Below are positions 1-63,529 of a stretch of DNA of 64,000 nt, piece after piece. The notes beneath the pieces were generated by a model. The model was given only the letters and a program-made list of their open reading frames with translations, was not told the DNA's origin and ran no database searches. The stretch is from Ginglymostoma cirratum (lineage: Eukaryota), in the NCBI GenBank assembly GCA_024137785.1, contig JAHRHZ010000016.1, positions 44,260,351-44,324,350 on the forward strand, read 5' to 3'. Each line of letters begins with the position of its first letter. The first letter of the stretch is position 1. The position numbers and the translations under genes are program-made.

Positions 1-431
1 CCCCCAACCGCATCCCAAAACCAGCCCAGCTCATCTCCACCTCCCTAACCTGTTTTTCCTCTCACCTCAAGCCACACCCCCATCTCCTATCTCCTAACAT
101 CATCCCGCCCCCTTGACCTGTCCGTCCTCCCTGGACTGACCTATCTCCTCCGTACCCCACTACCTACACTCACCTTTACTGGCTCCATCCCTGCCTCTTC
201 GACTTGTCTGCCTCCTCTCCACCTATCCTCTCCTCTATCCATCCTCTATCCGCCTCCCCCTCTCTCCCTATTTATTTCAGAACCCTCTTCCTCTCCCCCA
301 TTTCTGATGAAGGGTTTAGGCCCGAAACGTCAAGTTTTCCTGCTCCTATGATGCTGCTTGACCTGCTGTGTTCATCCAGCCCCATGCTTGTTATCTCGGA
401 TTCTCCAGCATCTGCAGTGCCTTTTATCTCT
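1..431 (+). mobile_element. Penelope-like element 3' end (pyrimidine-rich tract, terminal repeat and tail), truncated by window edge
   Basis: Same architecture as the terminal part of the GIY-YIG-bearing element at 31594-32215. Terminus ctgatgaagggtttaggcccgaaacgtc...ttgttatctc plus a 33-bp tail ending ttttatctc. Confidence 0.8.
301..334 (+). ncRNA. Minimal hammerhead-ribozyme-like motif (PLE-associated)
   Basis: ttt CTGATGA A GGGT ttag GCCC GAAAC GTC aag: core boxes, 4-bp stem II, palindromic ACGT stem III, 3-bp stem I. Confidence 0.65.
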
Positions 432-6577: not shown

Positions 6578-7361
6578 AAGAAACTAAGAAGACCCTCTAA
6601 AGGCACTAAGTACCACATTCTACAGCTACTACTCAGTCTGGTTGGCCAGCAGACCCAGCAACGCCAGAGCTCGGTAGTGGAGGCTGTCGGTACTGCATCT
6701 GGTCTCAGGTAAAGGCCCCAATGGATTGTGGACTAACGGTTTCAGTAAAAAAAAACACAACAGGCTGGAAGCTGCTGGTAAACCCACGCACAACTCAGTC
6801 ATCCTTTACCGTACAACTTCTGCTTCAGTTTAAACATACTGTGCTCTGAGCTTGGAAGAAAAAAAAAATTTGGGCGACAAGGGACTGGGTCTTTCACTCA
6901 GAGGTAAGGGCTTCGGGGAAGGTTGATGTGGCCACAATAGGGAGGGCAGGGGGAAGGGGAGAAGGGAAGAATTGGGGGGGGGGCGGGGGATGATAATGTT
7001 TTAAAGTCTGTTTGGGGAGGAAGGAAGGGTTGGGGGGTGTAGTATCTCCTGGAGAGATTGGGTAAGAGGGGAGGGCTTGATGCACAATTTCAGCATCTAA
7101 ACTGATGGGACCCCCTTTCCTTGCTGCACTTTTTAAAAAAAAAAAAAAACTTGTAAACAAAAACAAGCTTCCAACTCCTATCCACCTGCCCACACAACCA
7201 CTACCACCACACCCCTCCACCCTACCATTACGGGGTCACTTGAGCTTTTCACAATCTCAACGGAGCCTTATTTGTTCACACATGGTGGGTGGGCTGCTGA
7301 TTTTGGCATCCATATTATGGGGTTGAGCTGGGAGTCGGTGGGAAATGGGTCGTCTGGGCAA

Positions 7362-7446
7362 GGGTCTAGGCCCGAAACGTCAAGCTTTCCTGCTCCTATG
7401 CTGCTGCTCGGCCTGCTGTGTTCATCCAGCTCCACACCTTGTTATC
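7362..7446 (+). mobile_element. Short 5'-truncated PLE terminus with 12-bp TSD
   Basis: TCGTCTGGGCAA at 7350-7361 and 7447-7458 flanks gggtctaggcccgaaacgtc...ttgttatc. Confidence 0.8.
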
Positions 7447-8043
7447 TCGTCTGGGCAATGTCCTCTTTTTTTTAAAAAGAGCTCACCCTCCCATTGAAAA
7501 CACGCCCAGCAAGGGCATGTAACATATGGCCCTGGGGCTCTCGTTTATCCTAGGCCTTTGATTGGTACATTGCCAGGCACTGGCACTATTCTGAGTGGTG
7601 CTGCCTGCAATAAGAGTGTTCCCAGCCTCTGACTGACCGGCGGGTTCCAGGGGCAGGATTTTCACCTCCAGGGGAATCAAAATGGAGGCCACTAATTATG
7701 ATCAATCTTCTCCAATGTGGGGCTCTTAGCCACTGTCCAGCTTGCAGCCAGGACCGGTCTCCCCCAGATTAAATGCTGCCCTGTATATTTTACAAGCTTT
7801 TAGATTAGAGAAAAAAAAGGAAACTATGAAAACATCTACAGTACGCAAGAGGCAGTGGTATGATGACAGATACATCTTTACGCATAGGTTATAATGCATT
7901 TCCTGGTATCATTGGATGTGTTGCATCAAGAGGTGCATTACACAGAGGTAGCAAAAACTTTGATACAATAGACAGCATTCCAGAAAAATTACTAGACTCC
8001 ATAAATGCCAAAAAACAAAAGCAACTTAAGGACAACGACTTAC

Positions 8044-20502: not shown

Positions 20503-20629
20503 CTGCAAAACACAATTACAATCACTATCTCATCACAATCAACTCATCACACATCAGTAAATTCTTCCCTGAATACTCAGTCAATATAGAACCGAACTAA
20601 ACTCAAGGTGTTTCTAATTCCATTGCGTA

Positions 20630-21430
20630 GGAACACAGGAGCAGGTGTAGGCCATTGAACCTGATGAGCCACCCCTACCACTCACTCATAGCTCATCATC
20701 CACCTAGGAATCACAGTCTGATTTTTCAGTGTGGAATAAAGGTCCTTCAGCTCATAGTGTTCGCACTGGTCATCAAACATCCATCCATCCATCCATCCAT
20801 CCGTTCTAATCTCATTTTCAGCACTTGGCCCGTTGATGTGCAAGCTATAGCATTTCATCTAAATAGTTCTGAAGTGTCCTGAGGATTCCTGTCTCTACAA
20901 CCCTTTTGGTAAGTGTGTTTCATATTTCCACAATTGAGAGGGAAAAAACTTTTCCTCAAATTTTCTAAGTTTTAGGGTAAGGAGCAAAATTATGTCCCGT
21001 TTTAACTGACTCCTCTAAGGGGAAATGTTTTTCCTTATCAACATTGCCTCTGCCCCTCAGAATTTTGTACACCTCAGTCAAATCCCTCCCTAGCTTACTC
21101 GGCTGTAAGGAAAATATGCCCAGCCTATCCAGTCTCTCATCTTAGCCAATTTCCTTTCCTACCCCCATTTTCCTTTGACATTCATATCCAGAAATCTGTG
21201 GATTTTGGCCTTGGTTGATTGAGCTTCCATACAAATGTACAGAAATCCAAAGATTCACAGCTCTCTGAAATTCCTTCTCATCTCTGCCTTAAGTAACCTA
21301 CTCCCTTATTCTGAGGCAATGATTAAAATCAGAGAGAGGAAACACTCTGATATCCACTTTGTCACACCCTGCAATACTTTTGCAAGTTTCAGTTAGATTC
21401 CCTTTCTTTCTTTGACACTCGAGTATATAA
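20630..21430 (-). mobile_element. Cluster of highly decayed CR1-type 3' fragments
   Basis: Antisense tail signature gaacacaggagcaggtgtaggccatt, and ttttgtacacctcagtcaaatccctc / cccagcctatccagtctctc typical of antisense ORF2 ends. Confidence 0.5.
20778..20802. repeat. (CCAT)n microsatellite
   Basis: catccatccatccatccatccatcc. Confidence 0.85.
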
Positions 21431-22223
21431 ATCCAATTTCCTCAGATCTCTCCACATAAGAGGATTTGCAAACATGGTATTAGTCTAAAGTTCTGCTACA
21501 TGCTAAGTGGATGGTCAGCTGTGATTGTATTAAGGGGTGGAGGAAACACAATCCATTGAATGGCCTATATCAGGTCCTATATTCCAAGGCAGTATTTAAT
21601 TCTCCTCACCCCAGCAGACAACTAGTGTCCCCTTCAAGAGCCTCATCTTACCACCGTCATCATTAAATAATGGTGCAAGAGTTCAATGCCAAGCTGGTTG
21701 GGAAAGAAAGTGGTGGGAGGGGTTCCCTCCGCAACTGGGCCCCTTGGCCCATCAGTGGATCCTGCCTGAACAGGAACTCCATGCCAGGTTGCCTTCCCCT
21801 ACTGCCTCTCAAATTCCAGACCCAACAATCATGGACTTTCAAACACTTATTTAAGAAGTGTCTAATACATTGCAGCTTGTTGCTGCTGCTCCCTTGGAGT
21901 AACCGCTGTATTGAAAGCTGCCAGCCTCTCACTGGTCAAAGTGGAATTTCCTGTCTCTCGTGGGTGGAGTTCTCACCTCTGGCCTTACTGCCAATCCAAT
22001 CACTGCAGAGCAGCCATTTGCCCTCTGGGTAAAGTCTCCTGAATCTTTAGCTAAGGACATGTGCGAGGATTGGGGTGTGGGATTCGGTGTTTGGTAGACC
22101 CTGTCACCTTGCATAACTCAGGCCAGTAACACACAAAGTTACTGCACTTTGACATTAGGACTAATTCAGAAAAGACAGCACTTGCAAATTGCCCAATTTT
22201 TTTCAATCAGAAAAGAATCAGAA

Positions 22224-22594
22224 GGAGATAAAAGGTACTGCAGATGCTGGAGAATCCGAGATAACAAGCATGGGGCTGGATGAACACAGCAGGTCAAGCA
22301 GCATCGTAGGAGCAGGAAAACTTGACGTTTCGGGCCTAAACCCTTCATCAGGAAAAAAAAAGGTGGCAAGATGAGGCTCTTGAAGGGGACACTAGTTGTC
22401 TGCTGGGGTGAGGAGAATTAAATACTGCCTTGGAATATAGGACCTGATATAGGCCATTCAATGGATTGTGTTTCCTCCACCCCTTAATATTTTTTTTTGT
22501 TCTGATGAAGGGTTTAGGCCTGAAACGTCAAGTTTTCCTGCTCCTATGATGCTGCTTGACCTGCTGTGTTCATCCAGCCCCATGCTTGTTATCT
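22224..22594. mobile_element. Composite PLE-terminus insertion: inverted termini enclosing a captured 128-bp local segment, 11-bp TSD
   Basis: TSD AAGAATCAGAA at 22213-22223 and 22595-22605. Left arm 22225-22351 (minus, with tail), A9, 22362-22489 equal to the reverse complement of 21528-21655, T9, right arm 22500-22594 (plus). Confidence 0.85.
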
Positions 22595-22668
22595 AAGAAT
22601 CAGAAAAAGCCTATTTCATCTAAATATTTGATGCAGTACAGTGGCAGTAAGGAGGATTTCTGGAAGTA

Positions 22669-23247
22669 ATTGTACAGGACATTGAAATGGAGAGACCACT
22701 TTTGGAATACGGTGTACAATTCTGGTCACCCTTCTACAGGGAGGATGTTGTTAAACTTGAGGGTGCAGAAAAGATTCTCAACGATGTTGCTGAGACTGGA
22801 GGATTTGAGTTATATAGATAGGCTGAATACACTGGGACTTTCCCTCTCCGCCCCCACCTTGCCGGAGTGGAGATTTAGGAGTAACCTTATAGAAGTTTAT
22901 AAAATCATGAGGGGCATGGATAGGGTGAATAGCCAAGGTAGTGTTCCCTTGGGTGGGGGGGTCCAAAACTAGACGGCATGTTTTTAAAGGTGAGTGGCGA
23001 AAGGTTTAAGGAAGACCTGAGGGATTATTTTTTTCACACCGGAGGTTGGTGAGTCTATGGAATGAGCTGCCAGAGGACGTGGGGGGAGGCTGGTACAATT
23101 ACAATATTTAAAAAGCATCTGGATGGGTATATGAATAGGAAGGATTTACAGGGATACGGGCCAAATGCTAGCAAATGGGACTAGGTCAGATTGGGATACT
23201 CGCTCAGCATGCACGAGTTGGACCGAAAAGGTCTGTTTCTATGCTGA
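22669..23247 (+). mobile_element. CR1-type LINE 3' fragment
   Basis: Decayed RVQKRF..ML..LEDLSY.DRL..LGL...LIEVYKIMRGMDRV peptide plus 3' UTR. Confidence 0.85.
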
Positions 23248-23264
23248 TTGACAGAAGTACATTT

Positions 23265-24715
23265 CAACCAGAATTGTAGGCAATATTCCAAACGTGGCCT
23301 CACCAACGTCTTGTACAGCCACAACATGGCATCCCAACTCCTGTACCTAATGTTCTGACCAGTTGACAAGCGTTCCAAACACCACCTTCACTGCCCTGTC
23401 TACTGGGGATTCCACTTTCAAGGAACAATGCACTTGCACCATGAGGTCTCTTTCTTCGGCAACACTTCTCAGGGCCCTACCAGTAACTGTACAAGTCCTG
23501 CCCTGGTTTGCCTTGCCAAATACAATACTTACCATTTATCTAAATTAAACTCCATCTGCCATTCCTGGGCCCATTGGCCCATCTGATCATGGTCCTGTTG
23601 TACTGAGATAATCTTCTTCACTGTCTATCTATTTTGGTGTCATCTGAAAACTTACTAACCATACCCCCTATGCTCACATCAAATCATTTATATAATTGAT
23701 GAAAAGCAGTGGACCCAGCACCGATCCTTGTGACACACCACTGGTTACAGGCCTCCAGTCCAAAAAGCAACCCTCTGTCTCTTACCTTAGCCAATTTTGT
23801 ATCCAAATGGCTAGCTCCCCTTGGATCCCAAGCAATCTAACCTTACTGACCAGTCTACCATGTGCAACCTTGTCAAACACTTTGTTGAAGTCTATACAGA
23901 CAACGTCTACTGCTCTGCCCTCAATCTTCTTTGTCAGGTCTTCAAAAGTAATCAAGTTAGTTTGACATGATTTCCCATGCACAAAGCCATGACGACTATT
24001 GCTAATCAGTTCTTGCTTTTCCAAACGCGTACAAGTCTCTCAGAATCCCCTTCTACAACTTAGCCACCACTGATGTAAGGCTCACCAGTCTATAGTTTCC
24101 TAGCTTTTCCTTACAGCCTCTCAAATAATAGCACCACATTAGCCAACCTCCAGTCTTCTGGCATCTCACTCATTGCTGTCAATGATACAAATGTCTCAGC
24201 AAGAGGCCCAGCAATCTCTTCCCCAGCTTCCCACAAAGTTCTGGGAAACACCTGATCAAGTCCTGGGGATTTATCTCCCTTTATACATTTTAAGGCCTCC
24301 AATACCTCCTTCTTTAGTATTAACTCTTTTCAAGACTTCATTATTTATTTCCCCAAGCTCCCTAGTTTCCATGTCTTTCCCCACAGGAAATACGGATGTA
24401 AAATATTTGTTTACTGTCTCACCCATCTCCTGTGGTTCAAAAAATAGATGGCCACAATCTTTAAAAGGGCCTCATTCACTCCCTAGTTACTCTTTAGCCC
24501 TTAGTATTTTAGAGTAGAATTTCTTTGGATTCTCCTTAACTCTATTTGCCAAAGCTATGTCACGTCCCATTTCTGGCCTCCCGATTCCCCTCTTTCATAT
24601 ACTCTAACTGCTCTTGTACTCTTGTAGAGATTCACTCAATCCCAGCTGTTTATACCTGATAAAGGCCTCCTTTTTCATGACCAGAGCCTCAATTTCTCTC
24701 ATCGTCCAGCATTCC
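23265..24715 (-). mobile_element. CR1-type LINE ORF2 fragment (RT domain), frameshifted
   Basis: Peptides DKSPGLDQVFPRTLWE, HGFVHGKSCQTNL, VDVVCIDFNKVFDKVAH and LYKTLVRPRLEYCLQFW. Confidence 0.9.
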
Positions 24716-26118
24716 CACGAGGTGGGTGGTGAATTTTGGTGAAGGCTGGAAATGGGGGCTGGTGCTTTCTGCTGACTGCCCTTTACCAGTCACAACAACT
24801 GGCTAGGCTCACATTACAGAACATAGCAGACTGGAAAAATCCACAGAATTAGAGGGGAGATGTGGAAGAAAGTGAGGAGAAGGAAAAATGTAAGGTTTTT
24901 GTAAATCTACATTCGTCCTCTATCTCCATATGCTTGTTATTTGCTCACAGATTTTCTTCCTTGTTCAGAATAAAGATATTTAACCTGATTCCTATTTCCC
25001 TTGTCCTTCAAACGCAACTTAACACCATCTTCAGGACCTAGGTACAGAACATTATGGGAGTTAAAGGAATGGCAGGAATGAAGTACACACCATTAATCAG
25101 CCTGGAAGTTCGTGGAAACTCGTGCCATAGTACTGATGTATCGAAAGGGCAAGCCATTAATCTATTGCAGATGGTCCAGGAAATTAGGCTCCTGTGAACG
25201 TATACATTACTTGTGCCTCGCTAAGTAGTCCTGGGTGGTTTCTGCTACTCCTATGTTACTGTCAATGTTTGTAGTTCTGCTTCTGCATTAAAAGCAAATG
25301 TGATCACATGTTTCTTATACTGGTACCGTTTACTTGCCACCACTGCTTTTAAAGGCTAGGAAATAAACAGAGTAGAGACCTAGTAACAACTTGGTTTGTC
25401 GTTCCAAGATTATGATGGAAAACAGTCGCTCATTGAGCACACAAACTAAAAACACTAAATTCTACATTTGGAAAAGTGCTGCAGATATCATTTCATGGAC
25501 TTCATGGTTATTATACCAGAGGCCACTTCAATTGGAATTTGCTGTTGCAACGAATAAAAACTGAAGCTTTAACAAACATCTTTGGTTTGCATTGTGACTA
25601 TTTCAATGAGACACAAACATGAATTGTGCAGCTATAATGGAAGCAACTCCTACAAAAACATAATTCATACATTGTTTTTAAGATGACAACCATGACAGAG
25701 AAAGAGTCATGTCAGCCAAAGCAGTGTGATTCTAACTTGTGTAGCTAATAGTCATTTATCACTTTGAGATTGCAGGATCTGAAGGTATTTACAGGACGGA
25801 CAACGGAGTGAAGTTTAGGAAGCACAAACTTGTTAAAAATTGAACTGGCAACAACTTTGTCAGTTTCACTGCCATTTTAAAATATTATTTTCTGTTCATT
25901 AATCAATTTGACACCTGACAATTCAAAGTGGTTCCATTAACGTGGATTGACTTTGAGGCCAGAAGGGAGAAGAAGTGGCAATTTTTATTTTGTGGTCCAT
26001 TCTAAAAAAGAAAGTACAAAAAAGTGATGAAATGGCTGTTATGGCCCAGAAACAACTTTTAATGAAGTTAATCAAATTGCAAAACTTTGGCTCATCTATA
26101 AATATGCTAATAGACATT

Positions 26119-26996
26119 AGGTGGGTCGCGTTGTGGACAGTACGGAGGGCTGTTCTAGGTTACAAAGGGATATTGATAGGATGCAGAGCTGGGCTGAGAA
26201 GTGGCAGTTGGAGTTTAACCCTGAAAAGTGTGAGGTGATTCATTTTGGAAGGACAAACTTGAAAGCAGAATACAGGGTTAACGAAAGATTCTTGGCAGTG
26301 TGGAGGAGTAGAGGGATCTTGGGGTTCATGTCCACAGTTCCCTGAAAGCTGCCACCCTGATGGATAGAGTTGTTAAGGTGCATGGTGTGTTAGCTTTCAT
26401 TAACAGAAGGATTGAGTTCAAGAGCCGTGAAGTTATGCTCCAGCTATACAAAAGGCTGGTTCGGCCACATCTGGAGTATTGTGTCGAGATATGGAAGCAT
26501 TGGGAAAGGTGCACAGGAGATTTACCAGGATGTTGCCTGGAATGGAGGGAAGGTCTTACGAGGAAAGGTTGAGAGCACTAGGGCTTTTCTCTTTAGAACG
26601 ACGAAAGGAGAGGTGACTTGATAGGTGGTGTACAAAATGATCAGAGGTATAGATAGAATTGACAGCCAGAGACTTTGTCCTAAGGTGGAGGTAGCTATTA
26701 CGGGGCGGGGTTGGGGGGGGGGGGGGCATACTTTTAAAGTGAGTGGAGGTAGAAATAGGGGAGACGCCAGAGGTAGGTTCTTTACTCAGTGGTCGGGGTG
26801 TGGAATGCATTGCCGGAGAGGGTAGTGGAGTCGGCCTTAAGCGCTTAAGTGGGCACTTAAGCGGCTATTAGATAGGCATATGGATTATAGTAATGAGTAG
26901 GGGTGAAGGTTAGATAGACCTTAGGATAAGGGTAAAAGTTCGGCACAATATCGTGGGCCAAAGGGCCTGTACTGTGCTGTACTGTTCTATGTTCTA
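26119..26996 (+). mobile_element. CR1/HER1-like LINE 3' fragment, relatively young
   Basis: Peptides LQRDIDRMQSWAEKWQLEFNPEKCEVIHFGR and LYKRLVRPHLEYCV; tail ctgttctatgttcta. Confidence 0.9.
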
Positions 26997-28133
26997 TTAA
27001 TGACTAAACTGCTACAATGATCTGACTTCTCAGGATTAGAAAGCGGAGTTTTTGTAGTCTCAAGAAGTGATACAAAAATATTCTTGCAATGTAAGTGTTG
27101 CTGAGGAGCATACAGGAGGCCCAAGAGAGAGGACTGCACAAGGTACAAAACACTTGTATCTTCAAATTGTTTCACAATGACAAGGATTCCAAATATTGAG
27201 GCATTTGTGAAAATCAAATTCAAAACTAGAAGGGTTCCAAGATATCAGTGACATTTCAACTGCTAGCCAGCCATAATGATGTCAATATGTGAAAACCTCT
27301 ACCAAAAATGTAGATGTGTCTTTACAAATCATTGTTACGGGGTTTGCTTATGGTAAAAGTCCATATAGGGAAACATTATTTGTTAGCTGTTCTGTATATG
27401 CGGCCATATAGTAGTACATACTACACTGAATTGTAATTATTATTGACCACTGGCTGTGTCACTTTCGGCTCTCTCTCCCAAAGTTAGGCACAACTAACTT
27501 AAGTAAACAGGAACCTTTGATGTAAATTTGCTACAATGCTCAAATTGATGGTGCTTGTCAATAAAATTTTCCAGCAAATTCTGGGCCATTGCATCATAAA
27601 ATGTGAAAGTATATGTGCAAAGTATTCATCATCTTACAAAATTGATGCAAGGCAGGCAGTAGTCTTTAAGTTAAATGGGCATGCAGGTCATAAGGTTCCA
27701 TAATAAAAAGGAGGGGCAGCATGATGATCAAATCCGAGTGTTTGCATTGTTCCTATTTGGAATGGACACTTCAGGAATGCTATGTCGATTTGGGATGATT
27801 TGGGGGGAGGGGGTATGGAATTTTGTTTCTGCAGTAAAACCCTCTTTCTTCCATACGGCCATCTGTTCCCTATTAATAGTTGTTTTAATCATCAACCTTT
27901 CCTGATGTAAAGTTATCATGGCTGCAAGTTGTGTCTAGGCTATCTCTGGGTTATATCCGAAGGGGGTTTGGTCTGGTCCATAGCACTAATAAAACATCCC
28001 TTAGCTTTCATTTCAGAAATCAGCCTAGTGGGCCTTCTCGGAATTGATTCCAATACAAATATATTCAAGTAAAAAGAGACCACAACTGGATGTATAGTGC
28101 TCCAAGTGCATTTCTATCAATACTTTGTACAAT

Positions 28134-28566
28134 GATGTTGCCTGGTATGGAGGGAAGGTCTTATGGAGGAAAGGCTGAGGGACTTGAGGCTGTTTTTGTT
28201 AGAGAGAAGAAGGTTAAGAGGTGACTTGAGACATACAAGATGATCAGAGGATTAGATAGGGTGGACAGTGAGAGCCTTTTTCCTCGGATGGTGACAGCTA
28301 GCACGAGCGGTTATAGCTTTAAATTGAAGGGTGATAGATATAGGACAGATGACCGGGAGGTTCTTTACTCAGTAGTAAAGGCGTGGAATGCCCTGCCTAC
28401 AACAGTAGTAGACTCGCCAACTTTAAGAGCATTTAAATGATCGTTGGATAAACATATGAACGATAAGGGAATAGTGTAGGTTAGATGGGCTTCAGATTGG
28501 TTTCACAGGTCGGCGCAACATCAGGGGCCCAAAGACCTGTACTGCGCTGTAATATTCTATGTTCTA
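28134..28566 (+). mobile_element. CR1/HER1-like LINE 3' fragment
   Basis: Peptides MIRGLDRVDSESLFPR and AWNALP; tail ttctatgttcta. Confidence 0.85.
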
Positions 28567-28810
28567 ATGTAGCGTGACTTCCCTATATTTATACTGCATC
28601 CTCTTGCAACTCCTGTTCCTACCATTTATGTAGTTATTTTAACTTTGTTAAATCAGACATTTCAATTTGGCAGCCTCCTAAATGAGCCAAACCCTTAATG
28701 AGGATGCCAATTGCGAGGAATTATTGACCCAAGTCCAAGCTGTACACTTATGTCAGAGACCAAGAACTTTGTGATCCCTGGCACATCTGGCAGAAATCAG
28801 TTCCACTGAC

Positions 28811-28942
28811 CGACTTGGTGTGTTCTGGTCGTGGTGCTATCACTGGCGGTGGCATGTTGTCATCATCATCGTCATCATCATCTTCATCATCGTCCTCTGA
28901 CACGGGTGGTACAATTGGTGGTTCCGATGCAATCTTTGTGTT
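28811..28942 (-). CDS. PAK3: PAK3 coding exon 5 (acidic tract and PIX-binding motif)
   Basis: tttgtcatag| [44 protein letters not shown] |GTCAGT. 132 nt; [14 protein letters not shown] is the PIX SH3-binding motif. Confidence 0.95.
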
Positions 28943-35081: not shown

Positions 35082-37249
35082 CTGCAAAGGTTAAAATACA
35101 TAGCATATGTATTTTATGCAAGAAGCATAACATTTTTTCCAAAGAGATTTAATATGCAAATTATTCAATATTTTGACAGTAGATTTGATTTTTTAAACCA
35201 ACAAAAGAAAGTGTTTTTGGATTTAGAAGTTGTAACTTGGCCCAAAGTCCATCTCTTTTTAGTTGATCTCAAATTTTATCTTTGTCCAACACGTCTACTT
35301 GTCTCTGAACTTGTGTATAAATCTCCTTCAATGGATTTCCTTAAAGGATTCTAGAACCCTTAGCATAAGAAGAAAGAATCACTTTCTTGGTCCCAGTTAA
35401 CTCATTTTAAAATTTGTATCCCCTGAGATGTGAACTTTGTCTGATCAATATTTATTACCTTCACAAATCATGAAAAACTTTTGACATTGATGTCAATAAC
35501 ACTGTCAATCTCTCGAGAGTGAGTGGAAACCAATTCTCATGTCAGATACTCTTCTTATTACGTGACTTATTCCACACAACTACCTTGTTCGATGATAGAG
35601 GCAATATTTTCCCACCCAAGCTTAGAACAAAAATAACCTGTGTACACTTGAAATAAACCAACTTGAAGCTACTATTATGGTTTTGGGTTGGGACTGATGG
35701 TAGGGGAGGCACATGTCTAATACTGTGCAGATTCATTTGTCTACACTGAACAATGTAGTTTAGACTTTATTTTAGGATCAAAAACTGAGTTTTAAAATGT
35801 GAAAAAAGATTAGAAGTTAAGCCAGAGGGGGTCAGCTATTTGATTTTTCCAAAATATGTAGTATTTCCAAATAGAAAGGAACTGCAATACATTATCAATA
35901 AAACTATGAAAATCCTGAGGGAATGTTCTGTGGATAAGTTCTAATGTGCTAGTCTCCCTTTAATTGTTTCAAACCTTTACATCTTAAGTAATTGGTTCAT
36001 ATTGGGTTACAGTTTCACCAGTTTTGACAGCCCTCCAGTATCACGTTCAAATGGCTGTTCTTAATGTATAAATCTTAGCAGAAAGTGACAACACTTGTGA
36101 ATACTATCCAGCTCAGGCCTTTTTCTTCATCTGATAGTATGTTTGTGACTCTTTCTAGCTCAGATCACTGGCGAATAATTAACAACAGGAAACTAGGCCA
36201 TTTTTTCCACTCCCGAGTTGAGGGATGCTAAGGCCAATAACACAGTGCTTTCATAATCTTCTCAATTGAAATCACCTAATTCATCAAACCATGTGCTTTA
36301 CTTGTCGGAGCCATTAGTAACCCATGTCTTCAGCTGCCTATGGCTTAAGCTCTACAATTCCTTTCCCAAATCTCTCAACCTCTCACACCTGCTTTAATAT
36401 GCTAATGAAGATGTTTCTTTGAACATGATTATGGTCCTGTGCTGTTATCTTCATAAGAAACTTGATGTCAAATTTGATAATGCTCTTGCGATATTTTACA
36501 ACACTGCTAGCACTAGATAAGTGAAAGTTGTGTCACTGCTTTGAATCATAGAGGGGGTGTTTAACAATGGAATAATCTGTTGCAAAATATGATCTAGCTT
36601 CACAGGACACAAAACTTGGCACAATTGAAAATGAATCCAAAGATGTAATAATGAAGATGCGCTGAATCTTCCACTACCTCCAGCAGACAATTTTTGGATG
36701 CTACATATAAATTTTCCAACACATACTACCATTTGAGAATCTTCCTTGCAGTCTGTGCCTCTTTGGGAAATTTGCCCTTAACTTAACCTTGATGTCAATC
36801 ACCTTTAGTTGCCTTACAAACATTTATCAGGTTACCACCACCAGGTTAAATAGTCTGATGAAAAGAGCAACTAACAAGAGATTGGACAGACTGACCAGGA
36901 ACACTCAGCACAACGTGCCAGGTAGCAACCACATTAACCATCGACATTCATCTGCCACCAGTCAAATGAAGGATCGATCAAGTGTAGTTGTGCTAAATTG
37001 CATCTATACTCCCAGCCAGAAATCTGACACCTATTCCACCACCCACAGAATATTTTCATATGACAGGTAATTGTTTAATTATCACCTAAAATTAAAAAGG
37101 AATGATTGGTTAATTGCCACATTCAAATGCAAATCTCCAACTTTCAAAACAGTTCCATGGTATCTTTCAAGTCTCCTGCAAGGAAAGTTTAGTGCATACC
37201 ATTAAAGTCTACTGTGGGCAGTAAGAAACACACAGAGGCTGGCTTCCAT

Positions 37250-37485
37250 GCGACAAGAACAGACATTGCTGGAAGAGCTCAACAGGTCTGGCAGCATCTA
37301 TGAAGAAAAATTAGAGTTAATGTAGCGGGTCCAGCGACTGTTGCTCAGAACTGTGTGAAGGTTCTGAGGAAGGGTCACCGGACCCAAAATCTTAACTGAT
37401 TTTTCTTCACAGATACTGCCAGACCTGCTATTCTTCTCCAGCAACTTCTGTTTTTGTTCCTGATTTACAGCATCCGCAGTTTTTT
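37250..37485. mobile_element. Inverted pair of PLE-type termini (second family) with tail and probable 10-bp TSD
   Basis: Arms at about 37256-37351 and 37361-37456 are imperfect reverse complements. Core gttCTGAGGA A GGGTC accg GACCC aaaatcttaac. TGGCTTCCAT at 37240-37249 and 37486-37495. Confidence 0.7.
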
Positions 37486-40400
37486 TGGCTTCCATTGCAC
37501 ATTGGAGGTGCCACATTTGAACTTTTAGCTGATTTAGCTCCCCAAAAATTGAGAATTAGTTCAAACTCATGGTTTAAAACTTTATTATACAGACTCCTTC
37601 CAGTGATTCAGATGCATCTTGACTTTATGCTCACATCATAGAAATCTGAGCCCCACATTTAAACTAGGACAGCACATGGGCAGGGAAGCATAAACAGTAT
37701 ACTAGGTGCTCACAGAAAACAGCAATAATATTGTGGCTACCCAGGAACTAACTTTCCCTCCAAAGGTTGCAATGGAGACCAACAATCTAATCCACACAGC
37801 TTGCACCTCAAAGACTGCAAGGGAATCCGATGGATATGGCCCTTCCCCCACACTGCAAGGGAATTCTATGCTCATTGTCCTCCCCTGAAACACGTGCACA
37901 TGCAACGACCCCCTACCTGTAACCATAATTGATCTGAAGCACCCCTAGCAACACACCACCAAGTTAGAAACATTTTGTATACACATTGACCTTTATAGAT
38001 CCAGCATGCCATGAACAAAATGTTAGCAGGATGCAAATCATATCGATTGTGCAGATTCAATACAGATCATCTACGCATAGAACTTTCTGGCAGGTTGCAA
38101 TGTCTGATCCCACATATCCACTGAGATTGTTTTTCTCTATGGACGCGAGCTGAGTTTTCACCAACCCCCAACCCCCAGAAAATCTGAACCCAAACTTTAA
38201 TTCTTCAAATTGGCTTGCAGGGGTCACGATTGGATCAGTCTGCATCAGGGCTGTCAAATTGGCACTCATCCCTAGGGATTCCCTTCTGCCTTTTAATTAA
38301 AAAAAAATCATCGTAACCTACTTCCCAACTATCTACCAGTTATTTTCAAGTCAATGTTATAGATTCAAAAATCAAGCAACCAACCAGTTATCTCTGTGCA
38401 CTTGTACTGCTTTAGAAGGGGTACCATCAGTGAATAGACTGCTGCAATAAAATTCAAACAGCTTTTAAATGAAATGTGATTGGAATGAGAGGTTACAGAA
38501 AGTCTCATACAAAGTATATAAAACTTTATATCAATATTGTATTGATTACTTATTTCAATAAAGACAAAATGACTTTAAAAAAAACACTTCAAGGGACTGG
38601 GGGAGCTGGGAAAAAAGAAAAAAAAAATCAGGAATTTGACCTTGGTCTCGGAGTTACCAATAAAATTTGTACTTCATGATAAATTGCAATTTGAATAGAA
38701 TTACAAACCACAGCAGTTTGGTCTGAAAGTAGTAATAACTTCATAAAGATGTATTTAGTGATGTTCTTGCTTTTAAAGCAAATAACAAAGATGTAAATCA
38801 CATCAAAACTGCTGCAATATCCCTTATGACTGGTATCATTATAGTGAAAATGTAACAGGTTTCCTTTGCCTCAAAGATTCACCCTTTACTGACCTTAAAT
38901 GGTTTCAAAATAAAACTACAACTGATGTCGGACATTGAAAACACTTCAACTTAAGGAACCAGTTTATTCTTTGGTAATCTAGCATTTAAATTAATATGTT
39001 CCAAACACTGTCATAGAATGCAACAAATTCAACCTCTAAGGGGCTGCCACTATTATGCGTTCACCTATGCTGTAGCTCCCCAAACATAGCCATACTGCAG
39101 CAAAAAAGGTCAAATGCTAATCTCTCAATTAAAACAAATCCAAGAGAACAGACAAGGAAATTCAGGTTGCAATTAAATCTTATTGTGCTATCTGGCCAAA
39201 TTTGCCTCATTGGGGTTGGTATTTCTCAAAAATGTACCATATTTAATCAATATGAATTAAAAATTTTAAATGAGCTCTTTCAATGCATTAACTCATTTAA
39301 AAGATTTAAAGCTGCATAGTCAAGCAGTAATGACAATATTTTGACCTACTTTTATGCCTCATTTGTGATGAAATGCAATTAAACTACTACGTGCAACTTA
39401 CTTCCAAGTCATGACTATCCATCACCCTGATTATGACTGCCAGCTATAGTTCCATACATTGCTTGGTTTTACTGTATATTTATACTCATTGCAGAGAACC
39501 CAAATAAAATGCAGTGCATTATTTCTTGATTTAAGCTTTTCTCCCTGTCATGTCATTCTGACATGCAGACAGACCACTTTGCAGCTCAATTATAAGAAAA
39601 TGAAAGTGCTTAAGTGTAAAAAGGAAGGGATCTGCAAGCTGATGAAATAACAATGCCTTCACAGCAGGTACAAATGCACAATGATGGCCACAGATGCTAC
39701 TTGGAAGGAGGGGAGTCATTGAGACTTTGGCCAATATAAAAATCAGATGTTTGTTAAGCGTCTCTCCTGATTTTAATGACGTCAGTAGAAATGAAAAAAA
39801 ACAGGAGAGCTATGTAATGGGTGGCTGATCCAACAACTCCCATTACTGGCCAAAGCTAAAATTATTCCAAGGATCTGAGTTTAGGAAATGAAGGGGTTGC
39901 AGGCCTTTGAGAACACAAATTCTTCATGTCAAGTGATATAGCAGTGTAGCATTTTGGAGCACCAACATGTGATACTATTAATCTTGTAAGGGAATGAAAG
40001 TGCCTGTCTCCTACTTCTCTGAATCCCTCAATTTCCTTCTACAAAGTGGAACCTCGAGAAGTGGGAAGGGGTGGGGGGGGCAGGGGTTTAGCAGAGAAAC
40101 AAGCAGTGAAGTGAAGTCATTGTAGCACTCTTAAAATACCTCTTACTGGTTGGTAAAAGAGTGGCACAGAGGGAAGCCTGGGAGCAGTATGAATATCTCA
40201 CCATCGCAGCAAAAAGATAGAGAAAGAAACAACAATAACAATTATGGAATAATACAATGGCTGAATTTATACTCTTCACTAACTTTAGCAAAAATGTAAT
40301 TGCAAGCATAAAGTAGTGGAATATTGCTTTACGCTTATATCTACTTCACTGACATTTGTAAGCATCATCAGAAAATAGTGTCTGTACACCTGATTCAGAT

Positions 40401-60500: not shown

Positions 60501-61112
60501 TCCTCCTCAAAGTCTCCAGGTATTTTTTCATTAACATATTCAGAGATGTTATTACATACCTCTAGATCAGGTGGGACACTGCCACAACAGCCCTCAAAGT
60601 CTGTCTAGTCATACAATGGCATCTGTAACTAATGGCTAATGTGCAATAAAATATATTTTTTGTTAGCTACAAGAGGTTCTTCTAGTTAGACCAGGAAAAC
60701 AGTTCCCCGCTTGCACAATGGGCCAAGGTGCAGCTTCCTATAATGAAAGGGTGCCTATTATGGCAGTGACCTACATCACAGAGCGTTTTGCTGCTCATAC
60801 AGCATAGTGACCTGGCCTTTCTGTAAAAGCCCAGGAACCCAACCACTAGCAAATGTCAGAAGGAAAAGGGAAAGACTGGCATTGGAACCCAATGCTACAG
60901 AGCCTGCTCTGAAAATGGCATGCAGCATCAATTGGAGCGTTTGACAATTTTACAGGATAGACATAACAGGTAAATATAAATCAAAAATAGATGAAAATGG
61001 AGGCAGTAAGCTTAAGGAAAAAAAAAAAAAAAAAATGTATGGATGCTATTATACCAATAGTGACATAAAGACACTCCAATGCGCTGTCCTTAAAACAATT
61101 AGATTCTCCTTT

Positions 61113-61352
61113 GTAACAAGCATGGGGCTGGATGAACACAGCAGGTCAAGCAGCATCATAGGAGCAGGAAAACTTGACGTTTCGGGCCTAAACCCTTCAT
61201 CAGAAAATGTTCAGAAAATCATTTTCTGATGAAGGGTTTAGGCCCGAAACGTCAAGTTTTCCTGCTCCTACGATGCTGCTTGACCTGCTGTGTTCATCCA
61301 GCCCCATGCTTGTTATCTCGGATTCTCCAGCATCTGCAGTACCTTTTATCTC
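61113..61352. mobile_element. Young inverted pair of PLE termini with 12-bp TSD; hammerhead-like cores on both strands (61173-61206 minus, 61223-61256 plus)
   Basis: Arms 61114-61209 and 61220-61315 are reverse complements with one mismatch. 10-bp spacer, tail to 61352, TSD AGATTCTCCTTT at 61101-61112 and 61353-61364. Confidence 0.88.
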
Positions 61353-63529
61353 AGATTCTCCTTTTTGTTTGCTGTGAAAAGCAAATCTCTCAACTCTGCC
61401 TTTTTCCTTTTTGCTGAGAAAGATCTCCAAGGATGCCCATGCACCATTTACTCTCAGCATGTATCTGGTTGAATTAGTTAATTAGATCAAATGATTAGGA
61501 TGCAGCAGAAAAATGAACAAACTGGGCAAGACTGCAACGTCTGATACATAGCTAGATTTATAGAATAGGAAATGGGGTGTTTCAAATCATGTCTGTCCTG
61601 TCAGAAATGGAAGGCCACTTTCAGAGATCATCAATAAACTTAGAGCAACACACAAGTCATGCATGTGCGATTTACAGCACTTCGCAATATGGAGCAGATG
61701 GTACTCTGAAAATATAATGAGCAAGCAGAAACCAATGCCATATTAATGGGAAGGCACAGGCAGGTGAATCACCAATCATGGTCTGATCAGGGACAGCACA
61801 TTGGTGATACTATGGCAATACTTGCCAGGTGTACAATTCTCCCAGAATTGCTAACAGTTGGTTTTGCCAAATGTTGTGGTTGGGCTTTTCTTTATAGTAA
61901 AGAGATTCACGAGATATGTTCAGTGAAAAGAACAAATTCAGTTGCATTTCTAAACTCAATTCACTTTGTCGAAACTAACCATTGTCACCAAGTACACAAC
62001 CATGGGTGAAGGTGATAAGGTTAAGTAACACCGGGTCCTGATGATAGGATTAGAACCACATTGCTCACTCACCCAGGTTCTGCTGACTGGGTACAGTTAA
62101 AATATCCCTTCTCCTCCCACTACTAAGATATTCTGCTGTGAATGGATATTATTATCCCTTTTACAATCTCCCATACTCAGTCTGCTATCCATCTGCCTTC
62201 CTAAAACAACAGAACATCCAGGTCCTGATGTTTGCATACAATGCAGGTGTGCGGAGTCAGGGGGTATGCTGGATCAATTCAGGCACTTCTCCCTGCATTG
62301 CAGGATCTTCATTTTAGAACACAGGGGTTTTTGCTCAACAGTTTGCAGCAATACTGCTTCCTTCATTGCTACCGTGTGCATCTTCTGCCAAATACTGAAC
62401 AAAGACAATTTTGTCAATTGTAACAAATTCTTTTGTGTTTGTTTCTAATTCAGCCCAAAATTTTGTTTTCACCACACATACTTGCACAAGTGAGGCTACA
62501 GTGACATTAACCATTATGATCCCATTAAGGGACAACCTGTTGTGTTGGAGGTATAGTTGGAAGCTTTCCTACAGGTTGGAAGAATTTTCTGCATTTGTAG
62601 CACCTATCGTTGTGAACAGTGATTCAAAACTTATGCACAATTGATCGAAATAGGCTATGTAATTGATTAGAATTATCCTGTTTAAATTCTGTCAAGGTTA
62701 GAGCACGAGGGGCAATTCCCGTGCCAATCGAGTGAGCATAACTGGCTAACCAGTGAGTTTCAGTAAATGAATACCCTTTTGAATATCCTTGAGCACTTTG
62801 TTTTGTGCAAGGAACATGAACAAATAGCAACATGCTAAGTGTACAGAGCTGTTATGCAGAAGTAAAAGACATGTCAATATAATGCTGCTAAAAGCCTTTT
62901 TAAACCTGGCACAAAATTAGTTCACAGGATTTTTGAACTGTACAAAGGGTGATGGTAAAAGGATCAAAAAGCAAATGAAAGTATGAATGAAGTCTATGGG
63001 TAAGCGGCTGTATGGCACAGTTCCCAAACTATACAAATCAACAGACTAGAGCCTAGTTATCTGAGGGGTATTGTCCCCTTGTGGAACAAGAGGGCTTACT
63101 CCACTCAGGATGGCAGTGTACTAAGCTTGACACAAGGTGGCGTGTGGGTTCAACACAGCCAAGTATTGTCAGGACTTTGGGGTGGGTGGGGAAGGAAGGA
63201 AGGAGAATGTCGTATTCTTTAAAAAGAATCTGACTAGGTAGACATCATGTTCCACAGTGGATGACTGGAAATTCCATGCTCCAATGCATTGCCTGTGTAA
63301 TGGCTTCAAATTTGCCCCTTAAAACGCGATAGTTACACATATAGAGGCAAGATGGCTAGTCTAGGTTGAACATACTGAATCTCCTAGTGTTCCAAATATT
63401 GAAGGATAAGAACAAAGCTAATCATTTGCTAACAAAAGATCAACTTCAGGGTGAGTAAATGGTAGCTACACATGACCTCTTAACACTGGGTAAGGCATCG
63501 CCATTGAGGAAATAAATCATGTTGCACTC

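Follow-up and report, generated by a model that had tools for sequence, protein, structure and literature searches.

A young head-to-head insertion of probable Penelope-type termini around an inverted copy of nearby intron DNA in a shark PAK gene

The window analysed here is the whole 64-kb (64,000-nt) stretch of Ginglymostoma cirratum DNA shown above in part. It includes an intron of a group I PAK kinase gene, presumably PAK3 rather than PAK1/2, and within this intron lies an insertion (22213-22605) in which two oppositely oriented copies of an element terminus (pLTR) enclose an inverted copy of intron DNA from a few hundred base pairs away. The parts of the insertion, its surroundings and the two family members used for comparison are as follows.

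1-430, plus strand: longer copy of the same family, running off the window start, with native sequence upstream of the core
20503-28815, minus strand: host intron of the group I PAK kinase gene, ~8.3 kb, approximate bounds from flanking exon translations and family match
21528-21655, plus strand: source of the copy, single-copy intron DNA, from a self-search; intact and continuous with both flanks in a contig of a relative, organism B
22213-22223, plus strand: left target-site duplication, 11 bp, from sequence; single copy at the empty site of organism B
22224, plus strand: extra G between left duplication and tail, likely untemplated, from sequence
22225-22257, minus strand: 33-nt tail extension, on the left arm only, from sequence
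22258-22351, minus strand: tail-bearing pLTR arm starting from the putative CTGATGA hammerhead core, from arm comparison
22352-22361, plus strand: G + A9 linker (A9 = 22353-22361), 3' end of the inferred top-strand cDNA, without element counterpart
22362-22489, minus strand: 128-bp inverted copy of 21528-21655, from sequence and self-search
22490-22499, plus strand: T9 + G linker (T9 = 22490-22498), which the inferred bottom-strand cDNA would carry as a 3'-terminal C + A9
22500-22594, plus strand: tail-less pLTR arm, from arm comparison
22595-22605, plus strand: right target-site duplication, 11 bp, from sequence
61101-61364, no strand assigned: sister head-to-head insertion, in opposite orientation, from sequence comparison

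Read along the plus strand, 22213-22605 consists of the duplication, G, the reversed arm with its tail, G, A9, 128 bp, T9, G, the forward arm and the second duplication, and all parts of the order proposed by the initial annotation (target-site duplication, reversed tailed terminus, A9, 128 bp, T9, forward terminus, target-site duplication) were found in the sequence. The duplicated word, AAGAATCAGAA, has exactly two occurrences in the 64-kb window in an exact sequence search, at 22213-22223 and 22595-22605. The left terminus including its tail (22225-22351, minus strand, 127 nt) is identical to the tail-bearing arm of the sister insertion across all 127 nt. The right arm (22500-22594) shows two CpG-type differences from the left arm and retains two native T upstream of the core, both of which the left arm lacks. 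With the tail confined to the left arm and the two extra native T to the right arm, neither arm is a clean copy of its counterpart.

A self-search of the window matched 22362-22489 to the reverse complement of 21528-21655 at 127/128 positions (E=2e-59), the single difference falling at window position 21650, where the source has A and the copy G. The 128 bp occurs only twice in the 64-kb window, as source and as copy, and an origin of the source as an old repeat was rejected, the only match being one of 36 nt at 75% (20624-20659). The source lies 557 bp from the insertion site (21655 to 22213), downstream in the transcription direction of the PAK gene, and the plus strand of the copy corresponds to the source in pre-mRNA sense. 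When the ends of the copy were compared with the flanks of the source for microhomology, 0 and 0 bases were shared.

The insertion is young, and the copy within it is young, of local origin and no dispersed repeat. We compared the window with contigs from 4 of 24 listed sequencing runs, X2 and X5 from organism B, which is ~94% alike to the window, and X1 and X12 from organism A, which is nearer to it. In organism B the insertion site is empty and the source is intact and joined to both flanks: two individuals (X2 and X5) each gave one 1534-nt contig that follows 21013-22205 and then 22595-22725, with 6 letters between. This is the empty orthologous site, with one copy of the duplication and an intact 21528-21655, that the initial annotation had proposed to look for in related sharks. 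Contig depth in organism B is 14-32 over the source versus about a million (~1e6) over the arms, which argues that the 128 bp is not dispersed; the concern that it might be a high-copy repeat is countered by this depth and by the two copies in the window. At 8/8 of the organism B differences listed within the source (40 of 152 rows), the copy agrees with the window; it was therefore made after the split, from the allele of the window's lineage, and this agrees with the earlier view, based on 127/128 identity, that the copy of 21528-21655 is recent and local. Among the differences listed there is none for organism B at 21650, so the change there is probably the copy's own. The single organism A contig that covers the source shows the organism B letter at 21648, at a depth of 4.7 where it may be an error, along with 15 further differences.

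No contig of X1, X2, X5 or X12 covers 22406-22479 or spans either junction, and the structure is known from the assembly alone. The missing cover of 22406-22479 corresponds to the empty site in X2 and X5; X1 and X12 are patchy and their cover of the insertion is uninformative. The lack of a spanning contig in these four runs and the trouble that inverted repeats give assemblers would speak for an assembly artefact, but the 11-bp duplication is exact and matches the empty site of the relative, the copy differs from its source by one base, the arms have two differences plus the junction, and the window contains no N. Given the exact duplication and the copy-source and arm-arm differences, we regard an artefact as highly improbable.

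The sister insertion has a 12-bp duplication (61101-61112 / 61353-61364), arms at 61114-61209 and 61220-61352 and a 10-nt spacer, in agreement with the earlier description of a sister at 61113-61352 with the same arms around a 10-bp spacer. In this spacer (61200-61219 region) a single T is joined to 9 nt that repeat, in direct orientation, the end of the sister's own left arm. The window also has older members, namely a pair of a related family at 37240-37495 and two single arms. The pair at 37240-37495 is likewise head-to-head, with termini of the related family, a 9-nt spacer and a 10-bp duplication, TGGCTTCCAT. An older single arm at 7350-7458 is cut 5' inside the core, and its 12-bp duplication overlaps the arm ends; it has neither tail nor A linker. 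Duplications of 11, 12 and 10 bp flank the three head-to-head pairs and one of 12 bp flanks a single arm.

All five young arms contain CTGATGA, a 4-bp stem II, GAAAC and GTC, which together would form a minimal type I hammerhead without helix III, as described for the pLTR of Penelope-type elements (PLEs) (PMC6155905). An Rfam search gave no hammerhead hit on the arms, and the monomer folds no better than shuffles. Matches of Rfam microRNA models to the sister were below threshold and are due to its hairpin. Both young pairs carry a 33-nt tail on one arm only, which fits the 30-40 nt reported for PLE tails (PMC8557442, PMC11167929). By its core, tail, inversion and duplication the family would thus belong to the PLE class, with no RT or GIY-YIG gene tied to it. 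The earlier assignment to PLE-type inverted ends with a tail and a duplication is likewise upheld by the one-sided 33-nt tail, the 11-bp duplication and the apparent hammerhead cores. In the sister, a frame of 41 codons starts at an ATG within the putative hammerhead core and runs on through arm and tail (61229-61351), as in the Poseidon ORF. The window copies have no coding part, and comparison of this frame with longer proteins, a weak test, found no relative among 4 candidates, none of which had E<=1. The family had no match in pattern scans of viral contigs or of prokaryote genomes.

The sequence that precedes the core in the element is CCCCCATTT in the longer copy (296-303) and CATTTT in the sister, which rules out A9 and T9 as element-encoded tracts. 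Priming homologies are ruled out as well, since neither source flank has a matching base, and annealing of A9 to a T7 run at 22197-22203 would have copied other sequence than that seen. Read as cDNA, both arms finish alike, with one odd base and then nine A, suggesting tailing of two 3' ends. The initial annotation had proposed that a polymerase switched template during integration, with homopolymer linkers at both junctions; the recent local copying stands, but A9 and T9 did not serve as priming homologies and a simple switch with fold-back fits less well.

In a fold-back scheme of this kind, one continuous synthesis would produce the whole insertion: a tail-primed cDNA would switch to the local template, copy 128 nt and then fold back on A9 plus the arm, writing T9 and the second arm. 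This would account for the equal length of A9 and T9, the inverted junctions of PLEs have been suggested to form by self-priming (PMC3846280), and the sister's spacer, a repeat of 9 nt of its own arm end, indicates that short switches occur in the family. Yet fold-back predicts T9-C-CTGATGA, and T9-GTT-CTGATGA with the native TT is observed. The tail-primed strand would also need a plus-strand template, which is antisense to the pre-mRNA, with no homology for entry. Further, arms made in this way should be identical at birth, whereas those of both young pairs differ at arm position 46 (window 22306, 22547, 61158, 61271 and 349), and in the same direction: C in 2/2 tail-bearing arms and T in 2/2 tail-less arms, with T also in the long copy. 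At the other CpG sites decay is seen in 1/13 cases, and the contrast at position 46 has a Fisher p=0.044; the pattern has a probability of ~0.005 under fold-back versus 0.06 under two templates. We therefore think a continuous synthesis quite unlikely. Arms that differ at the same site in both young pairs point instead to two separately primed cDNAs, and the variants give a slight hint of two pLTR templates, coming as they do from two insertions and a single CpG site, which may decay at a rate of its own. The formation of inverted ends in PLEs is still called undefined (PMC8557442), and an abundant young family with variant-marked arms and preserved tails and fillers would allow twin priming and fold-back to be tested against each other in genome data.

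Our preferred reading, to which we give a probability of roughly 60%, is a young twin pLTR insertion in which the 128-bp local filler was captured while two separately primed cDNA ends were being joined. The element endonuclease would nick both strands 11 nt apart and each 3' end would prime reverse transcription, the two reactions beginning at the tail start site and the tail-less start site, respectively, with two different pLTR templates serving the two cDNAs and both cDNAs stopping just past the hammerhead core. Both would then gain a non-templated A9. Because such A-tailed ends are mutually unable to anneal, a 128-nt piece from 557 bp away would bridge them without homology, and fill-in would write T9 opposite each A9. 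The anole Poseidon protein is reported to cut and extend both strands, with two start sites defining the tail; it is predicted to be a dimer, and it depends on RNA lying downstream of these sites (PMC11167929). L1 insertions have been described that arise from two oppositely oriented cDNAs, some with inner-junction pieces and some with nearby genomic DNA (PMC11702581), and an R2 RT can add dA tails to ends in vitro, although long dA tailing required Mn2+ (PMC8594491).

Points against the twin-primed reading, besides the lack of a spanning contig, the slight evidence for two templates and the lack of an RT or GIY-YIG gene tied to the family, are the equal 9-nt linkers, which fold-back copying would naturally yield, and the fact that an ordinary palindrome with a short spacer would acquire this arrangement if it broke at its centre later on. 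Such a break would imply two steps, in which a head-to-head insertion with a short spacer later broke at its palindrome centre and was trimmed, A-tailed and patched with the local 128 bp. Near-perfect palindromes break and acquire central inserts. Short-spacer pairs are the common form (the sister, 37240-37495 and joints of 1-4 letters among the rows listed), and both arms of the insertion are 4-6 nt shorter inside than those of the sister. Arms and copy are, however, about equally young (private changes at 1 in 220 arm bases and 1 in 128 copy bases), so the second event would have had to come fast, and the sister is still intact with its 10-nt spacer; we consider two steps unlikely.

The filler could also have been made by polymerase-theta end joining or microhomology strand invasion. 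Polymerase theta characteristically leaves templated inverted inserts (PMC11541566), much like the inverted local copy at the junction here, and L1 templated inserts are thought to arise from annealing to nearby DNA (10.1101/2024.08.27.596794). However, microhomology is zero at both ends of the copy (0/0 nt), and a 128-bp copy from 557 bp away falls outside the described footprint, with polymerase-theta templates typically <10 bp, within ~20 bp and with 2-3 nt homologies (PMC11541566), and L1 templates within 15 bp. An origin of this kind seems very unlikely to us.

Within the twin-priming model, we give a little under half of the weight to local intron RNA as the template of the filler, somewhat under a third to DNA copied in place and about a quarter to a free DNA fragment that was ligated; one event cannot separate an RNA from a DNA template. 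If PAK pre-mRNA was the template, the cDNA of the tail-less arm would have been extended: it would have entered at an RNA 3' terminus at 21528 and run for 128 nt towards the site. The plus strand, taken as such a template, would read 128 nt of intron in pre-mRNA sense and then U9. The acceptor may have ended in U's, of which T9 is a possible record, or a free fragment may have been ligated between the tails by end joining. The R2 RT jumps onto RNA or DNA without homology, but 3' overhangs >2 nt block jumping (PMC8594491), which makes a direct RT jump from A9 doubtful unless the acceptor was U-ended. It is a long shot that head-to-head PLE insertions are twin-primed from two templates by an element RT that A-tails both cDNAs and jumps homology-free onto a broken, perhaps U-tailed, piece of the transcript then being made from the target gene. 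If so, fillers should recur genome-wide, have sense-strand sources and be found close to the insertion.

For PLEs, inversion of the pLTRs, a tail on one side and a duplication are standard (PMC3846280, PMC8557442). In Adineta vaga, solo pLTRs with duplications have already been noted to enclose unrelated sequence. The insertion resembles such known pLTR insertions in its head-to-head repeats, one-arm tail, duplication (8-12 bp in known cases) and host sequence between the arms. In the available text on these captures the sources are not reported as local and gene capture occurs between direct pLTRs, whereas here the source is 557 bp away, in cis, and its copy is inverted between A9 and T9. Poseidon of Anolis carolinensis, characterized in vitro (PMC11167929), shares the minimal hammerhead at the ORF start and the frame from an ATG in the core through arm and tail; it differs in that inner junctions and fillers are outside the available text of that paper, and in that no ORF was seen in the window family. 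For L1, templated insertions comprise 22 cases among ~3,600 classified, <250 bp and typically within 15 bp (10.1101/2024.08.27.596794), and two-cDNA insertions comprise 3 cases (PMC11702581). As in L1, a host segment of <250 bp (here 128 bp) has been duplicated into the insertion and opposite cDNAs would be joined end to end, but the template lies 557 bp away rather than within 15 bp and the joining is homology-free, between two homopolymer tails. Our literature search, incomplete for subscription journals and older PLE-structure papers, found neither local templating of fillers nor twin priming described for PLEs. Capture of host sequence between inverted pLTRs is of an already known kind, as are local templated inserts in L1. 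As far as we searched, the mapped in-cis source 557 bp away, the lack of homology, the twin A9 tails and the arm variants suggestive of two templates are apparently new, with closer L1 cases perhaps existing.

The description of the insertion as a cassette of host sequence between ribozyme-bearing ends appears overstated. The two putative hammerhead cores are on opposite strands and face outward, one sense core per strand, so no transcript would be cut on both sides and no excisable cassette would result. A retrozyme-like cassette, with two same-strand hammerheads in dispersed or tandem units, is not matched either, given the opposite-strand cores and the single-copy depth of the 128 bp in the relative. 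In the left arm, which is gene-sense, the base before the core is C versus T in the family, which would weaken stem I. Judged from its anatomy, the product is likely dead, as there is one sense core per strand and the arms reach no farther than the start sites, leaving out the downstream RNA that Poseidon, the one PLE studied in vitro, requires.

The capture was likely a one-off patch rather than a mobile cassette, and the suggested route for local sequence capture found no second instance: a local copy was present in 0/24 distinct comparators and in 0/2 other head-to-head pairs of the window, whose spacers are 9-10 nt. The 12 joint rows listed of 271 from the run contigs include head-to-head joints with 1-4 letters between. 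The comparators came from a metagenome scan of 120 loci (of ~190 estimated; wide flanks for 80), which belong to other hammerhead-bearing families and have only the core in common with the window arm. An inverted partner was present at 28/120 loci, leaving 24 distinct pairs after 4 duplicates were removed, one of them on a weak 24-nt match. None of the 28 metagenome pairs had an exact inner-to-flank match of at least 12 nt or an A9/T9-like homopolymer at the junction (two had a 7-base run). The power of this comparison is limited, with one or both flanks reaching 700 bases for 14/24 pairs and both doing so for 4, and with inner stretches that are mostly short or element-derived. One long foreign inner piece (L100:614-763) has its own inverted ends and a relative in L078, and looks like a second insertion. 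Head-to-head pairs are common in unrelated hammerhead-bearing termini (28/120 loci, L003-L120), and one arm is often ~30-40 nt longer.

For the host gene, the capture amounts to a small intronic duplication without demonstrated function. In gene-sense RNA (21528-22489, minus strand) the copy is predicted to pair with the source over all 128 nt, outcompeting the arm-arm hairpin, and the predicted 128-bp perfect stem that the pre-mRNA would thereby gain is a possible editing substrate.
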